DNA of 32,000 nt from Candidatus Helarchaeota ASGARD archaeon Hel_GB_B (GCA_005191425.1 SUPR01000006.1:1-32000), one strand, 5' to 3'; positions 14,602 to 30,676 are shown, numbered from the stretch's first letter. The notes: generated from the sequence alone by a model not told the origin. Numbers and translations: made by a program.

Positions 14602-15522
14602 TTATATTTCAGGTGCCCATTCAATTTTCTCAAGGTATTCAATTAAATTTTTAATCATATTTTGATGAAATTCATCATCACTGTATGGTCCAAGGCTATC
14701 TAATAAATTTTTCAAGAATTCTTTGTTTTCTTCATCTCTTTGTTGCATTACAAGTTTATAGTCTAATAACAACGTAAGAGTTTCTTGTAATTCACTTATC
14801 ATTTTCTGAGATTTTTCCAGTTCTTGTTCTAATTTTTTAATTTTGGAATTGAGTTCATTTTCAATTCTTTGACGTTCTAACTTTTTTTCTAATGCTAACT
14901 TAATATGAAGCATTGAATCTTTAGATTTTAGTTTTTGAGTTAATTCGTTTATTGTTTCTTTAAGTAAATTAATCGTAACATCTCTATCATTAAGTTTTTC
15001 TTTTAATTTCTCATTCTCTTCTTTAATTTTATCTAATTCGGTTTTTGTCGATAATATTATCTGGAGTTCATCTTCATTTATTTTGATTTTATCATTGATT
15101 AGTATATCATACAATTTTGGAAGAGTCTCAATATACGACTTTCCAATTTTAGCTAAAACTTCTTTTTCAGTTGTGGTCCTGGCATCGAACCGTTCTAAAG
15201 GTAGTTCTCCTAGCACAATTTTTGCACCTAATGGTAATGTTTTTGTATAATTCTTTTTATCTTCATTTTTGTCCAGTAGTAAAGAAATTGCAAAATTTGG
15301 AGCGATATAATAATTAGCTGTTATTAAACCTGAAAAAAAACTAATTACATTCAGGTTTTTTAATTTTAATGTAATAACATTTGCATCTAATTGTCGCATT
15401 CGGTGTAAACTCCCAATTCTCATTATTTCATCTTCAGTGATTTTCAAATTTTCAGGATATTTATGAATTAAGAAAAAACCTTCTTTATTAGTCCAACCTA
15501 TTAAAATTATTCCTTTAGGCAT
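14602..15522 (-). CDS. longin/uDENN-like N-terminal domain plus a long coiled coil
   Basis: MPKGIILIGWTNKEGFFLIHKYPE (W-x4-G-x6-YP)...VISFFSG...AISLLLDKNED; residues ~150-255 are an E/K/L-rich heptad region. Confidence 0.6.
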   Translation of the reverse strand: MPKGIILIGWTNKEGFFLIHKYPENLKITEDEIMRIGSLHRMRQLDANVITLKLKNLNVISFFSGLITANYYIAPNFAISLLLDKNEDKKNYTKTLPLGAKIVLGELPLERFDARTTTEKEVLAKIGKSYIETLPKLYDILINDKIKINEDELQIILSTKTELDKIKEENEKLKEKLNDRDVTINLLKETINELTQKLKSKDSMLHIKLALEKKLERQRIENELNSKIKKLEQELEKSQKMISELQETLTLLLDYKLVMQQRDEENKEFLKNLLDSLGPYSDDEFHQNMIKNLIEYLEKIEWAPEI

Positions 15523-21313: not shown

Positions 21314-21572
21314 ATAATCATCTCTTTTTTTAAATCTTCTATTTTTATTAAGTTAAAATACTTTTTTAGCTTTAAAAACCTTGTGAATTTAGGTCATTTA
21401 TTACTTAATTGTTAATCAATTGGGTATTTAATTGAAAATATTTTCTAAAATTCTTTTATATTATTTTTCACACAATTTTTTATTGAATTAGTAAGAAAGA
21501 ATATGAAAAATAATTAGAAGCATAATTTTGATAATTTTAAACTTATGTACTAATGTTATCATAGTGAAAATA

Positions 21573-22364
21573 ATGAAATCTAATAAAATAATAACAGGAA
21601 TTCAAGGATTTGATGAGTTGATTGAAGGTGGGCTAAATGAATGCGATTCTATACTGTTAATTGGGGGGCCTGGGACAGGTAAAACAATATTTGGACTTCA
21701 ATATATAGTTAATGGAATAAAATATTATAATGAGGCTGGACTGATTGTGCTATTGAAAAATCAAATAGAAGAAATTCGTTTAAAATTAAATTATTTCGGT
21801 TTAAATTTAGATAAATTAATAAATCGAAATCAACTGAATATACTTGATGTATCACCAATTATTACATTGATGGAAAATGGAAATTATAAAATAAAAATAA
21901 AAAATGAGTCAGATACATTAATTGGTGATAAAGATTTTAATATACGAGAGATAATTTCAAGTATTCACCTTAAAAGGAGAAAAATTGAATTTAAAAGGGT
22001 TTTAATTGATTCTTTAATGCCATTATTACTAAAATATGATGATTCATTTCTTTTTATGACTGAATTTGAATTATTATTAAAATCTTTAAAAAAAGCCAAT
22101 ATGACTTCACTGATTTTAACTGAAAATAGTTTTAATAACGATAATTTAAAAATAGCAACACATTTGGTAGATGGAGTAATAAAACTGACATTATCAAGAT
22201 ATGGAAATACTAAAATTAGATATTTGGACATTATTAAAATGTCGAACTTGGGCCATATCTTAGCTACCAAATTATTTGATATTTCAGAACTAGGTATCAA
22301 AATTTTATCTGATAAAAAGATTTCACTAAATGAATCAATTGAAACACTTGATTTAAAGGTATAA
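21573..22364 (+). CDS. single-domain KaiC/RAD55-like RecA-fold ATPase, apparently degenerate; start revised from 21528 to ATG 21573
   Basis: TGIQGFDELIEGGL, GGPGTGKT (Walker A), RVLIDSL (Walker B), VDGVIKL, RYLDIIKM. Confidence 0.85.
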   Translation: MKSNKIITGIQGFDELIEGGLNECDSILLIGGPGTGKTIFGLQYIVNGIKYYNEAGLIVLLKNQIEEIRLKLNYFGLNLDKLINRNQLNILDVSPIITLMENGNYKIKIKNESDTLIGDKDFNIREIISSIHLKRRKIEFKRVLIDSLMPLLLKYDDSFLFMTEFELLLKSLKKANMTSLILTENSFNNDNLKIATHLVDGVIKLTLSRYGNTKIRYLDIIKMSNLGHILATKLFDISELGIKILSDKKISLNESIETLDLKV

Positions 22365-22375
22365 GTGAGTATAAT

Positions 22376-23350
22376 ATGATCTGCATAGTAATATCATTTT
22401 TTGATAATATAAATGGACCAAGACCTTTATTAAGCATTCCAAATACATTAAATGATATAGATCTAAATAATATAGCTTCATTAATTGACAAAACCTTTGA
22501 GACAGGATTTTTTATTTATGAATTTCCTGAATATAAGACTGCTAATTATTTTTTTGAGATTGAATCCGAATGGGCTCGTGGAAACAAAGAAATGGTACTA
22601 TTAACCATTGTATTTGATTTGAATTTTGATTATAATTCATTGGATTTACAGACTATTATGAATGATTTTATAAATGAATTGTCCAATATTACTAACCTAT
22701 TTAAAGCATTTTATATTTTTGATTTTAATAGAAAAAAGGACAATGAAGTTAAATTTTATTATGAAAAATTGAAGGAACTTATTATAGATTTTAAAGGTTC
22801 TCTTCCAAAAGAAACTCTGGCAGTAAACCAGAATCAAATTAAAATTTTTGTTTTTGGACTTGATAGAGCAGGAAAATCTACTATACTAAATCGAGCGAAA
22901 ACCAATTTATTTGTTAAGACCTCTCCGACCATAAATTTGAATATAATGCACCTTTTATTTGGTAATATTCAACTTGATTGTTTTGATGTGAGTGGTCAAA
23001 AGCGATATCGATATACTTGGCGGAGGTTTATAGTTTCATCCCAGTATTTAGTTTTCGTATTAGATGTTAACAGAGAAGATAGATATGAAGAAGCAAAAAT
23101 TGAATTGTGGAAGGTCTTAAGTTATGAAGAAAGTAAAGGTATTCCGTTACTAATATTAATTAATAAGACAGACTTAAAAAAGAAAATAGACTTGAATTAT
23201 TTTATAAATTTTTTAAATTTGTATAAGATTAAGGACAGAAAATGGCATATTATGTCTACATCTGCATTATATAATCAAGGAATAAAAGAAGCATTTGAAT
23301 ATATAATAAAAGATTTATTGTCTAACCAATTAACAATGTTTTCTATGTGA
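22376..23350 (+). CDS. uDENN/longin-like domain fused to an Arf-like small GTPase
   Basis: N-terminal SFFDNINGPRPLLSIP...FEIESEWARGNKEMVLL. GTPase motifs GLDRAGKST, PTINLN, FDVSGQKRYRYTW, NKTD, TSALYNQGIKEAF. Confidence 0.88.
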   Translation: MICIVISFFDNINGPRPLLSIPNTLNDIDLNNIASLIDKTFETGFFIYEFPEYKTANYFFEIESEWARGNKEMVLLTIVFDLNFDYNSLDLQTIMNDFINELSNITNLFKAFYIFDFNRKKDNEVKFYYEKLKELIIDFKGSLPKETLAVNQNQIKIFVFGLDRAGKSTILNRAKTNLFVKTSPTINLNIMHLLFGNIQLDCFDVSGQKRYRYTWRRFIVSSQYLVFVLDVNREDRYEEAKIELWKVLSYEESKGIPLLILINKTDLKKKIDLNYFINFLNLYKIKDRKWHIMSTSALYNQGIKEAFEYIIKDLLSNQLTMFSM

Positions 23351-23377
23351 AAAAAATTTTAATTTATTTTTAATTTG

Positions 23378-23911
23378 TTATTTTTGAATTTGTGAGATTG
23401 TCATTAATATTTTTTTTCCCAAATTTTTGAATGCTAAATCAATATTTTCCCCTGTTTTAGCTGAAGTTTCTAAAAATTCAATTCTAAGTTCTTGTGCTAA
23501 TTTTTCGCCTTCACTTTTAGTGATCATTCGTTGTTCTGTTAAATCAACTTTATTTCCAACTAATATCATGGGAATTTTATGTCCTACATTTACCATTAAA
23601 CGAGAGAACCACTCTTTTACAGCATCAAAAGTATTTCTACGTGTAATATCATAAACTATTAATGCAGCTTCTGCTTTACCATAAAAACGCTTTGCCATAT
23701 TTTGAAAAAGGTTTTGCCCACCAATATCCCAGATAACAAATGTTAATTCAGTGTCCAGGTCTTCGAATAAATATTCTTTTGCCATAATATTGACGCCCAT
23801 AGTACTTTTATAATCATGAATAAATTTGTGATGGACAAATGAATTGAGAACCGCAGTTTTTCCTACCATATATGACCCAATTATTATTACTTTTTTCTTA
23901 ATTTTAATCAT
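23378..23911 (-). CDS. Rab-like small GTPase without a C-terminal prenylation Cys
   Basis: GSYMVGKT, YKSTMGVN, WDIGGQ, FYGKAEAALIVYDIT, GNKVDL, ETSAKTG. Its start overlaps the upstream stop (ATGA, 23908-23911). Confidence 0.93.
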   Translation of the reverse strand: MIKIKKKVIIIGSYMVGKTAVLNSFVHHKFIHDYKSTMGVNIMAKEYLFEDLDTELTFVIWDIGGQNLFQNMAKRFYGKAEAALIVYDITRRNTFDAVKEWFSRLMVNVGHKIPMILVGNKVDLTEQRMITKSEGEKLAQELRIEFLETSAKTGENIDLAFKNLGKKILMTISQIQK

Positions 23912-24903
23912 TTAAATTCCTCCCTTCTAGAAATCTGGTTTATTGGCCTTAATAACGAATAATATTTGTAAATGGGTTTAATGCTAAGTGAATTTTTGAC
24001 AATATTTGCTTTGCAGTCCAAACATTGGTAGAATTCATTCAATTCTTTAAAATATTTCTTACATTTTAAACAATAATGATAATGTCCTAATCTTTGATAG
24101 TCTACTCCTTCAGTTTCTAATTTAAGATTACATTTCATACAAATCATATCATTTTTTATGAACTCATTTTCAAAATCAATATGTCCACATTTAAAGTGTT
24201 CAATAATATTACCTTCAATTATCGTAGATGAATTACAAATTGGACAAATTTTCGATGTTTTAAGATGACTTGATCCACATGAAGGACAAACAACTAAATT
24301 ATCGACCATATATTTTCCTACTATATTTTGTTTTTCCAATTCTTTTAACAAATCTTCGGCTTTAATAGAATTTCCAGCAATTTGTTCCAACTTAGGATAA
24401 TGGACACCATGTATATAATCATATTGGGGAGTAAAAATCGTAGATGGATTTTTTTCTAGAAATTTGACTACTTTGGAAATTTTATACGCTATAATGGGAC
24501 TTACAGGACAATTATTAATTTCGGATATTTTACTCGCTTTTTCAACTATTTCATTAAATAATTGTGGAATAATTTCGTGAGCTTTATCTAAATTTTGGAT
24601 AATTTTATAAAATTGCTCTTTTAAAATTGGTTTAAAAAATCTTGGTGTTTCATTTTCTTCAAGAATTAACATCAAAAGTAAATTATTTTCCCTGCCGCCA
24701 TAATAACATGCGATATGAAATTCATCTGTAAAAAGGGCAGAGAATCGTTCAGTAGTAATATCACCCATTGTCTGAGAGGTAAAAATAAATAATACTTTTT
24801 CTGTATTAAAAACTTTTTTAATCTCATCATCATCTGGATAAATTTCATCTAGTATTGCTCCTATACTATCGTCCCAATGAATTAAAGCTAGTCCGATTGG
24901 CAT
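23908..24903 (-). CDS. longin/uDENN-like N-terminal domain fused to a multi-zinc-ribbon TackOD1-like domain; start likely ATG 24903
   Basis: MPIGLALIHWDDSIGAILDEIYP at the N-terminus. C-terminal HYPKL...CPSC..CPIC..IEHFKCGH..CMKC..GVDY..CLKC..CLDC (11 Cys). Confidence 0.75.
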   Translation of the reverse strand: MPIGLALIHWDDSIGAILDEIYPDDDEIKKVFNTEKVLFIFTSQTMGDITTERFSALFTDEFHIACYYGGRENNLLLMLILEENETPRFFKPILKEQFYKIIQNLDKAHEIIPQLFNEIVEKASKISEINNCPVSPIIAYKISKVVKFLEKNPSTIFTPQYDYIHGVHYPKLEQIAGNSIKAEDLLKELEKQNIVGKYMVDNLVVCPSCGSSHLKTSKICPICNSSTIIEGNIIEHFKCGHIDFENEFIKNDMICMKCNLKLETEGVDYQRLGHYHYCLKCKKYFKELNEFYQCLDCKANIVKNSLSIKPIYKYYSLLRPINQISRREEFK

Positions 24904-25146
24904 TTTTATTTTCAAGAGTTTTTTTAAAATAAATCAATAAAGTTAATTAATATTTACTATAAATTTAGTTTTCAGATGTTATTCATTAATCAAATTAATT
25001 AATATTTTTTTTATCTAAATTTTTGTGAAAATTTGTTGAAAGTCCGTTTTAAGTTCATTATAAATTCTAAAATAAATCTTTAAATTCTATAACATTCAAC
25101 TTATTCTAAACTTAAATTGTCAAAAGTTTAGAAGGATGTTCAATCT

Positions 25147-29431: not shown

Positions 29432-30676
29432 TTAGGTTATTAAATTAGCAATCCAAGGGATTAAGATATCATCATTTTTTATATAGAATTTTTCTGTATT
29501 TTTATGTATACTTGCGAAGAAAACTAATTTATTGTTTAAAAAGCGTTTGATTATAGTAAGAATTTTTTGTCTATCCAAATTAATATCAATTGAATCAATA
29601 TTTTGAAATCTTCCATAATAAAAGATCTCGATATTTAAATTTGAGAGAAAATTTATTAAATAATTATAAAGGTCATTACATATTTCGTCATTTTCAGCCC
29701 AATATCCTAGTTTTAAACATGAACTGTCCATTAGTAATATATTATTTGTCCCAATTTTTTCAGCTTGCTCCCTTAATATATTATTTATAACAAATTTAAC
29801 ATCTTTATTAGCTATTTGTAAAATAGCGTGGGAAAAAAGATTGAAGATTGTCATGTCATCAAATATAGAGGTGATATAAAATTTAAAATTGAAATTCTCT
29901 TCTTTAATTAGAAATTTTATTTCATTTTTCATTTTTTCTAATTTTAAATTGATTTCACGATTGTCTTTAATATTAGGGTCCATTTTGTGGAAACAGATGA
30001 TAATATATGGTTCTTCACTCAAATAATTGTAAATTTTTAAAATGTTTTTTAGATATTCAAGGTTTTCTCCAAATCTATTAGATTGTACATCAATTACATA
30101 AATAACTACGTTAGTACCCACAAAAACCCGATGTGGCTGATTTAAATATTGGGTTCGATATTTTTTTTGCCCGCCCAAATCCCATAATTGAATATCACAG
30201 TAATTTATATCAAATTTTTCGCGTTCAATTCCTTTTGTTGGTTTTAATAAATTTAATGCTTTTAAAAATTCAATGTAATTTTTTTCGTATTTATTAAAGA
30301 ATCGATTTCTTATTGCTGTTTTTCCTGCATTATCAAGCCCAAATAAGTTTATTTTTTTAATATTTTTATTATGTTTATTATCTATTTGCGAAATTAGTTT
30401 AGCTATAATCACATATCTCTCAAATTCAAATCGGTCTATATTTAATTCATTTGAAATTCTATCAATATCATCAATTTCAAGTTTTAATAAATCTTTGATT
30501 TTAAAGATATGAAAGTTTTCTTGGAGAATTTGAGCGATATTTGGACTTATTTCTTTAATTTCAATAATAGATTTATTTAAAATATCTTCTTTTGACACTT
30601 TTTCTTGTAAAGAAATTTTGAAAAATGAATTTATTCGTTGAAATAAATCATCTGATTTTAATGTATTTAATACCAA
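29432..30676 (-). CDS. HhH-like domain + Rag/Gtr-like small GTPase + roadblock-like C-terminal domain
   Basis: IIEIKEISPNIAQILQENFHIFKIKDL; GLDNAGKT, KPTKG, WDLGGQ, CFHKMD, ITSIFD; C-terminal INNILREQAEKIGTNNILLMD. Confidence 0.8.
   Translation of the reverse strand: MVLNTLKSDDLFQRINSFFKISLQEKVSKEDILNKSIIEIKEISPNIAQILQENFHIFKIKDLLKLEIDDIDRISNELNIDRFEFERYVIIAKLISQIDNKHNKNIKKINLFGLDNAGKTAIRNRFFNKYEKNYIEFLKALNLLKPTKGIEREKFDINYCDIQLWDLGGQKKYRTQYLNQPHRVFVGTNVVIYVIDVQSNRFGENLEYLKNILKIYNYLSEEPYIIICFHKMDPNIKDNREINLKLEKMKNEIKFLIKEENFNFKFYITSIFDDMTIFNLFSHAILQIANKDVKFVINNILREQAEKIGTNNILLMDSSCLKLGYWAENDEICNDLYNYLINFLSNLNIEIFYYGRFQNIDSIDINLDRQKILTIIKRFLNNKLVFFASIHKNTEKFYIKNDDILIPWIANLIT

Follow-up and report, generated by a model that had tools for sequence, protein, structure and literature searches.

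The window analysed here comprises 32,000 nucleotides of the genome of Candidatus Helarchaeota ASGARD archaeon Hel_GB_B (GCA_005191425.1, SUPR01000006.1:1-32000; assembly of 3.54 Mb, 93.7% complete). The subject of this report is a compact cluster of four genes within it, which encode a KaiC-like protein (open reading frame 1, ORF1), an Arf-family GTPase fused to a longin domain (longin-Arf, ORF2), a Rab-like GTPase (ORF3) and a second longin domain fused to the zinc-ribbon domain TackOD1 (longin-TackOD1, ORF4) (Table 1). Reading the sequence bore out the layout given in an earlier note on this DNA, namely a block of two gene pairs facing each other across a 27-bp gap: the TAA stop codon of ORF1 is separated from the ATG of ORF2 by 11 nucleotides, and on the minus strand, which reads ...AAATGATT... 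around the ORF4/ORF3 junction, the TGA stop codon of ORF4 overlaps the ATG of ORF3 (ATGA), with a GGAGG sequence ~10 nucleotides 5' of that start codon. The four family assignments made in the note held as well: Pfam models place the proteins in the KaiC, Arf, Ras/Rab and TackOD1 families, and the N-terminal domains of ORF2 and ORF4, neither of which produced a match to Pfam or NCBIfam models, are both longins by predicted fold.

Table 1 Features of the four-gene cluster and of related loci (positions are those of the window unless another locus is named)
Feature	Position	Strand	Remarks
ORF1, KaiC-like	21573(ATG)..22364	+	263 aa; alternative TTG start at 21528 gives 278 aa
ORF2, longin-Arf	22376..23350	+	324 aa
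Longin A domain of ORF2	22376..22816	+	FLCN/SMCR8/NPRL2 type; F9-D10-x3-G14-P15, W-A-R68-G loop
Arf-family G domain of ORF2	22817..23350	+	Pfam Arf; G1, G3, G4, G5 intact
Intergenic spacer between the two convergent stop codons	23351..23377	.	27 bp, A/T-rich, read from sequence
ORF3, Rab-like GTPase	23378..23911	-	177 aa
ORF4, longin-TackOD1	23908..24903(ATG)	-	331 aa; alternative TTG at 24915 gives 335 aa
TackOD1 domain of ORF4	23911..24477	-	Pfam PF18551; 11 Cys, five CxxC and one HxxC
Longin B domain of ORF4	24478..24903	-	W10-D11-x3-G15, P23; no conserved Arg in b4-b5 loop
Rag/Arf-like multidomain GTPase	29432..30676	-	loosely linked, ~4.5 kb off; best own-genome match of the G006 GTPase
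TackOD1-AsnC/Lrp regulator and 231-aa protein, sister modules	L002:3195-5005, L045:1-1634, L048:5380-7200
Response regulator and 168-aa protein of G006	L003:1487-2913 / L046:12479-13905

Structural modelling identifies residues 1-147 of ORF2 as a longin domain (longin A). Each of the two N-terminal domains was folded singly from an alignment (ORF2 residues 1-150 and ORF4 residues 1-142), and the AlphaFold2 model of longin A (predicted local distance difference test, pLDDT, of 90.1) displays the longin topology b-b-a-b-b-b-a-a, with strands at residues 3-10, 14-21, 45-49, 54-63 and 71-80 and helices at residues 27-38, 91-103, 108-113 and 123-142, as assigned by DSSP. A Foldseek search seeded with this model retrieved NPRL2 of the GATOR1 complex first (5.9e-6), followed by yeast Npr2, FLCN, FNIP2, SMCR8, C9orf72, DENND11/6 and Lst7/Lst4. 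VIA-align gave Z values of 13.7 to a Lokiarchaeota longin (8yqg) and 13.1 to FLCN (8dhb_J); the eleven matches after FLCN are longins of GTPase-activating protein (GAP) complexes, and adaptor-sigma and SNARE longins start at Z 10.7. Seven residues (F9, G14, P15, S64, A67, R68 and G69) are invariant in all eight orthologues, which come from two orders. Among these, G14-P15 opens strand 2, where the GP motif of FLCN, NPRL2, SMCR8 and C9orf72, which is absent from non-GAP longins, has been located (PMC12290439), and R68 (W-A-R-G) lies in the loop between strands b4 and b5. On the strength of the GP motif, the invariant arginine and the fold matches, longin A is of the FLCN/SMCR8/NPRL2 (GAP) type, and R68 is a candidate arginine finger, a putative equivalent of FLCN R164, NPRL2 R78 and SMCR8 R147 by its loop position and invariance. 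Profile searches of both longin families against the sequences of the PDB yielded nothing significant; NPRL2 residues 8-58 appeared at E values of 0.13-1.2, in a weak alignment that spans only residues 2-48 of longin A. A paralogue elsewhere in the same genome (C19:8245-9255, L013; 336 aa) contains the longin A domain twice in tandem, at residues 12-154 and at residues 173-320, and has Glu in place of the WARG arginine; it could be a single-chain pseudo-heterodimer.

The remainder of ORF2 is an Arf-family G domain (PF00025, residues 148-313, E 5e-43, 146.9 bits versus a cut-off of 22.3), and no other Arf match in the genome comes close to ORF2 (148.6 bits versus 85.1 for the second). The best matches of the G domain among PDB sequences are a 'GTP-binding protein' (8oun/8oum), Arf1, Arl5 and Arl1, and its nucleotide-binding motifs are intact (G1 GLDRAGKS, G3 DVSGQ with the catalytic Gln, G4 NKTD and G5 SAL). 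An N-terminal amphipathic helix, named as the defining feature of the Arf family (bioRxiv 10.1101/2024.02.28.582541), is missing from the G domain of ORF2, which is preceded instead by the 147-residue longin domain; longin N-termini have been noted among Asgard Arfs (PMC11914678). ORF3 belongs to the Ras family (PF00071, E 2e-47), and its best 60 PDB sequence matches are all Rab/Ypt proteins, headed by a Thorarchaeota Rab (7ezb, 5e-35). Its G1-G5 motifs are likewise intact (GSYMVGKT, DIGGQ, NKVD, SAK), and its C-terminal tail, which ends in ...TISQIQK, contains no Cys that could form a prenylation motif. Without an amphipathic helix in the Arf domain or a C-terminal Cys in the Rab, neither GTPase has an evident membrane anchor, and the module therefore looks like one of cytosolic signalling rather than of vesicle traffic. 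Furthermore, both G domains keep the catalytic Gln, as would suit an arginine finger contributed in trans.

The second longin domain (longin B) occupies residues 1-131 of ORF4 according to its AlphaFold2 model (pLDDT 89.7), which has the same b-b-a-b-b-b-a-a topology (strands at residues 2-11, 15-22, 53-58, 63-68 and 75-81; helices at 26-44, 87-103 and 105-130). Its Z value to 8yqg is 12.4, and many other longins, including NPRL3-size, FNIP2-size and C9orf72-complex chains, follow at Z 10-12. The longin B family counts 380 representatives among 1.84 billion proteins and has no Pfam model; the domain is found by itself, within ~365-aa proteins, joined to TPR, at the C-terminus of giant proteins and, in Helarchaeales only, joined to TackOD1. 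In an alignment of 54 members, W10 (50/54), D11 (44/54), G15 (54/54) and P23 (53/54) are conserved, the residue after G15 is not consistently Pro, and the b4-b5 loop (position 71) carries no conserved Arg; the W-D-x3-G spacing is that of C9orf72 (W33-D34...G38, as given in PMC12290439). Comparison of the two family profiles with hhalign (probability 86.5%, E 4.6e-6) indicates that longin A and longin B are detectably related, apparently paralogous families, with the Arg-bearing loop of longin A aligned as an insertion absent from longin B. The second half of ORF4 is a TackOD1 domain (PF18551, residues 143-314, E 2.5e-35, 122.2 bits versus a cut-off of 32). Residues 143-331 contain 11 Cys arranged as CPSC, CPIC, HFKC, CMKC, CLKC and CLDC, that is, the five CxxC and one HxxC expected from the published definition of the domain (PMC5847659). 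The longin of ORF2 leads straight into the Arf G domain and that of ORF4 straight into TackOD1, with no DENN or d-DENN part in either protein; of the 'longin/uDENN' label attached earlier to these domains, the longin fold thus stands for both, whereas membership in a DENN module does not, and 'uDENN' is usable as a fold label only.

Two further observations concern the longin B family. Another member (306 aa, hidden Markov model E 3.7e-25) is encoded in the window at 14602-15522 on the minus strand, 9 kb upstream, with no GTPase gene within 1.5 kb. In addition, giant proteins of 1300-2500 aa (P0036, P0039, P0049, P0052 and P0057) have a longin B domain close to the C-terminus, and one of them carries Laminin_G_3 and DUF2341 repeats; they resemble surface proteins whose longin tail would lie in the cytoplasm.

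The closest relative of the source genome (L001) has an identical four-gene layout, with 62-76% identity over the four proteins in BlastP comparisons. L001 also shares the unrelated, metabolic genes on the flanks, so that taken alone it shows synteny only; the informative loci are those in more distant genomes of the same order, Helarchaeales, in which the layouts differ. In G001, a short TackOD1 protein (miniTackOD1), longin-Arf, longin-TackOD1 and Ras are encoded in this order and in the same direction, with gaps of 11, 26 and 4 bp. The G006 locus consists of genes for a histidine kinase, a response regulator, a 168-aa protein, a GTPase, longin-Arf and another GTPase, convergent with a longin-TackOD1 gene followed by Ras. 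On contig C50 of G003, genes for a longin-B-only protein, Ras, longin-Arf, a Rag-like GTPase and KaiC face a TackOD1-AsnC/Lrp gene followed by that of a 231-aa protein. Finally, on the metagenome contig L002, GTPase genes and KaiC converge on the same TackOD1-AsnC and 231-aa pair, which is divergent from miniTackOD1 followed by longin-Arf. ORF2 of the window is the clear best match of all longin-Arf genes (224-285 bits versus at most 76), and ORF3 is the best match of every Ras encoded behind a complete longin-TackOD1 gene. The latter proteins and ORF3 form a clade of their own, apart from 20 paralogues of the source genome (support 97/91* with three rows, 86/46 with four rows); the Ras genes behind longin-B-only genes constitute a second clade (97/90*). 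Orthologues of longin-Arf, longin-TackOD1 and the ORF3-type Rab accordingly recur together in at least four rearranged Helarchaeales loci, once in a co-directional arrangement. The two gene pairs hence go together, as the earlier note suggested, but the KaiC-like gene is inconstant and adjoins the module in three of the five layout types.

It is highly improbable, in our assessment, that the cluster has no functional meaning and that the adjacency reflects merely a dense, shuffled set of GTPase and longin paralogues together with local synteny with the closest relative. The source genome does contain ~46 ORFs for small GTPases and 14 for longin A or longin B proteins, L001 shares the entire neighbourhood, and according to published work most genes for Asgard eukaryotic signature proteins lie outside conserved neighbourhoods, all of which would fit such an explanation. 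Chance, however, predicts ~0.05 GTPases within 1.5 kb of a given gene, whereas three of the ten longin B genes of this genome have one within that distance, and TackOD1, single-copy in the genome, is flanked by two. An explanation of this kind is largely refuted by the recurrence of the same orthologous trio in at least four gene orders with differing flanks.

Several additional genes accompany the sister loci. The TackOD1-AsnC/Lrp regulator (371-372 aa) and the 231-aa protein, for which there is no Pfam match, form a conserved pair that is convergent to KaiC in sister modules and absent from the source genome. The G006 module is headed by a response regulator (REC followed by an unassigned C-terminus of ~190 aa) and the 168-aa protein, after a PAS histidine kinase. 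The 406-aa GTPase encoded directly upstream of longin-Arf in G006 has its best own-genome tblastn match at C150:29663-30646 (174 bits), that is, in the Rag/Arf-like GTPase gene of Table 1; a gene of this kind occupies the same relative place in L001, and the GTPase may be a loosely linked member of the module.

Beyond Helarchaeales, longin-Arf orthologues of Lokiarchaeales (L006, L008 and L009) are flanked by TPR proteins of 667-693 aa, and these three loci contain neither a TackOD1 nor a KaiC neighbour. The N-termini of the TPR proteins carry W-D-x3-G-P and match the longin B profile with a probability of 90.7%, versus 38% for longin A, which suggests that they are longin-like and of the WD type; in the proteins of ~690 aa, the loop that holds W-A-R-G in longin A contains V-R-G. 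The feature constant in the two orders is, then, an arginine-bearing longin-Arf beside a WD-type longin, the other domain of which varies. Adjacency to GTPase genes was also considered for the ~370-aa longin B proteins of Lokiarchaeales and was not upheld, with a GTPase within 1.5 kb in two of ~24 loci; the Ras link is therefore particular to the Helarchaeales subfamily. Of 400 Asgard genomes, 110 contain TackOD1; all 149 genomes scored for families f5 and f6 lack it. In further Asgard families (L059, L064, L068, L074, L066 and L073), a TackOD1 gene of 366-423 aa comes immediately after, and often overlaps, a Ras-like gene of 184-212 aa, in the reverse of the gene order in the window.

Our favoured interpretation, held with moderate confidence, is that the cluster specifies a Helarchaeales-specific small-GTPase signalling module built on a longin A/longin B platform in which R68 serves as arginine finger. 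Its core would consist of a GTPase of the Arf family joined to a GAP-type longin with the GP motif and the invariant R68; a paralogous longin without the arginine, whose WD..G motif resembles that of C9orf72, joined to the TackOD1 multi-zinc-ribbon domain; and a dedicated Rab-like GTPase translationally coupled to the longin-TackOD1 gene. By analogy with FLCN-FNIP2, NPRL2-NPRL3 and SMCR8-C9orf72, the two longins would most likely form a heterodimeric platform, on which R68 would speed GTP hydrolysis by the Rab-like protein, by the tethered Arf domain or by both. TackOD1 would then relay the switch state to an output; its partner is probably a protein or a nucleic acid, as suggested by the TackOD1-AsnC/Lrp regulators encoded in sister loci, and the KaiC-like protein would act as a variable input or scaffold. 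A more specific version of this proposal, which we regard as rather unlikely, is that the locus is the prokaryotic equivalent of heterodimeric longin GAPs such as those of eukaryotes, with an Arg-finger longin fused to its Arf client and a WD longin-TackOD1 jointly controlling the Rab-like GTPase.

A number of observations weigh against the module as proposed. It is supported by genomes of a single order, which are not independent of one another. With the queries used, neither longin-Arf nor longin-TackOD1, nor any TackOD1 match, was found in G004, a genome of the same genus (93% complete, 460 contigs), where recent loss or an assembly gap could be responsible, and longin-Arf was also not found in G002 and G005. 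The G006 and G003:C58 layouts lack KaiC, and the orthology of the L002 and L048 KaiC proteins to that of the window is marginal (175-181 bits versus 169 for a paralogue). The TackOD1-adjacent Ras proteins of the other Asgard families, tried as members of the ORF3 subfamily, fall in other clades. The Z values of longin B are tied between SNARE, TRAPP and GAP-type longins, so that fold scores separate no subclass, and R68, which would have to reach a nucleotide pocket, is equated with the known arginine fingers as a candidate by loop position and invariance, not by residue-level superposition. Binding of longin A to longin B, its candidate partner encoded alongside and co-varying in synteny, is likewise suggested by analogy; a complex prediction for the two domains (score 0.23, mark 0.32) counts neither for nor against pairing.

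The main alternative, which we regard as rather unlikely, is that two separate switch pairs share a neighbourhood and each longin serves its own GTPase, with no longin A/longin B heterodimer. The longin of ORF2 would then act in cis on the Arf domain and ORF4 would act on the Rab as a homodimer, like MglB or roadblock/longin dimers, the two pairs being co-regulated or arranged in a cascade. Each pair is indeed already defined, one by the ORF2 fusion and the other by the translational coupling of ORF4 and ORF3, and the convergence of the two gene pairs in the window, which precludes a shared transcript, speaks for separate pairs and against one module. A longin-B-only gene precedes Ras without a directly adjoining longin-Arf in G001:C171 and G005:C1, a longin B gene on contig C163 of the source genome directly follows a Ras gene, and the title of the PDB entry for the Lokiarchaeota longin 8yqg calls it a 'dimeric structure'. 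Two separate pairs would leave unexplained, however, why longin-Arf stays beside a WD-type longin in two orders although the accompanying domains (TackOD1 versus TPR) have been exchanged completely, and why the longins show a complementary pattern, with the Arg loop in longin A only.

The direction of regulation can also be questioned, because most of the longin platforms characterised so far are guanine nucleotide exchange factors (GEFs) and not GAPs (PMC10933270, PMC12290439), which counts against an arginine-finger platform. A GEF or a sensor of the nucleotide state, as in Mon1-Ccz1, TRAPP and DENN proteins, with R68 in a structural role or in contact with a partner, would agree with the presence of the longins of DENND1, DENND6, DENND11, Mon1-Ccz1 and TRAPP among the fold matches. 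We nevertheless consider it improbable: the GP motif is restricted to GAP-type longins and absent from DENND, TRAPP and adaptin longins (PMC12290439), longin A combines an invariant GP with an invariant Arg, and its top-ranked matches are GAP subunits.

The KaiC-like protein is a clear member of its family (PF06745, E 4e-47, 160.9 bits versus a cut-off of 26.6) with a Walker A motif, GGPGTGKT, that begins at residue 31. In KaiC, strand 2 is followed by a catalytic pair of glutamates, Glu-Glu (E77/E78 of KaiC CI). In alignments with PDB sequences, '..vtfee..' of KaiC faces '..vllkn..' in the KaiC-like protein, a replacement of Glu-Glu by Lys-Asn that is also seen in L001, whereas the Glu-Glu pair is kept in L002, L048 and the own-genome paralogue on contig C109. 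Judging from these residues, the protein probably binds nucleotide and has lost the catalytic glutamates, and hydrolysis or autokinase activity appears doubtful; of the 'KaiC-like ATPase hub' envisaged earlier, the family and the Walker A motif are retained and the hub role is doubtful. Assignment to circadian KaiC (equivalog) was rejected, the protein having one domain in 263 aa instead of two in tandem and 129.6 bits to NF006799 versus a cut-off of 408. A KaiC subfamily dedicated to the module was also discarded, its support being marginal. A second pair on C109 (C109:12743-14407, L014) consists of a KaiC-like gene with the Glu-Glu pair and, after a 12-bp gap, a gene for a 290-aa longin-like and Arf-like GTPase whose N-terminal domain is longin-like by its Atlas model; coupling of KaiC to longin-GTPases hence looks recurrent. 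Within the module, KaiC counts as a variable accessory outside the core.

Each part of the cluster has precedents in the literature. Two paralogous longins within one locus recall FLCN-FNIP2, NPRL2-NPRL3 of GATOR1 and C9orf72-SMCR8(-WDR41): the GP motif and invariant Arg of longin A are those of FLCN, NPRL2 and SMCR8, the very subunits that are its best fold matches, and longin B shares the W-D-x3-G spacing of C9orf72 without the Arg. According to PMC12290439 and PMC10723147, the clients of C9orf72-SMCR8 are Arf- and Rab-like, as are the GTPase families here. Unlike the eukaryotic GAP complexes, the proteins of the locus have no DENN/d-DENN part and no NPRL2-type C-terminal domain, the Arg longin is fused to a GTPase and its partner longin to a prokaryotic zinc-ribbon output domain, and there is no lysosome or mTOR context; a heterodimer and GAP activity are proposed here by analogy. 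Asgard longins of the FLCN/SMCR8 type with a GP motif and arginine finger have been described (PMC12290439, Traffic 2025), with the question posed whether their partner GTPases are ArfR or Rag. They belong to the same fold class and share the same two motifs as longin A, which is, in contrast, joined to an Arf-family G domain and linked in the genome with a second longin and a Rab-like GTPase, an arrangement that we did not find in the text of PMC12290439.

Asgard fusions of longin or roadblock domains with GTPases, longin-Rag/Arf among them, are a known class, and so are proteins in which an NPRL2-like longin is joined to two-component signalling domains (Liu et al. bioRxiv 10.1101/2020.10.19.343400; Tran et al. 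PMC10933270; Zhu et al. PMC11914678). Asgard GTPase genes, however, mostly do not form operons with longin or roadblock genes, so that gene layout is rarely informative (Tran et al. PMC10933270), and Arf GAPs and GEFs could not be identified in Asgard genomes (Zhu et al. PMC11914678); compared with the known longin or roadblock fusions, the locus described here is a conserved neighbourhood with translational coupling. MglA-MglB similarly places a small GTPase gene beside a regulator of the roadblock/longin superfamily in a prokaryote, MglB being a dimeric platform (PMC10933270), but MglB is a homodimer with roadblock topology, the GTPases here resemble Rab and Arf instead of MglA, and the TackOD1 and KaiC parts have no counterpart in that system. 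The published architectures of TackOD1 are the domain alone, REC-TackOD1 and REC-wHTH-TackOD1 (Galperin et al. 2018, PMC5847659); the domain of ORF4 belongs to the same Pfam family and has the same 11-Cys pattern, although its partner domain is a longin and its neighbour a Rab-like GTPase. The conserved neighbourhood, the complementary motifs of the two longins and the link between TackOD1 and Rab were not found in the literature searched. The earlier remark that no description was known therefore applies to the conserved arrangement, which appears undescribed in that literature, and not to its individual parts (longin-GTPase fusions, NPRL2-like fusions and GP/Arg-finger longins), all of which have been published.

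Asgard genomes encode dozens of eukaryote-like small GTPases and of longin and roadblock proteins, and for the question of which of these regulators is paired with which GTPase the cluster names specific, small and soluble proteins as candidate partners, namely longin-Arf, longin-TackOD1 and one Rab-like clade, with R68 as a clear point mutant and W10-D11 as a predicted partner motif. If the locus does encode an equivalent of the eukaryotic longin GAPs, it would be the first assignment of a cognate GTPase and GAP in Asgard archaea. Moreover, parts of a eukaryote-type switch are tied here to TackOD1, a KaiC-like protein and a histidine kinase/response regulator, all archaeal, and this tie bears on the use of such switches before endomembranes; under that same, more specific reading, the module would represent a living model of longin GAP complexes as they existed before lysosomes and mTOR, wired into archaeal KaiC and two-component signalling.

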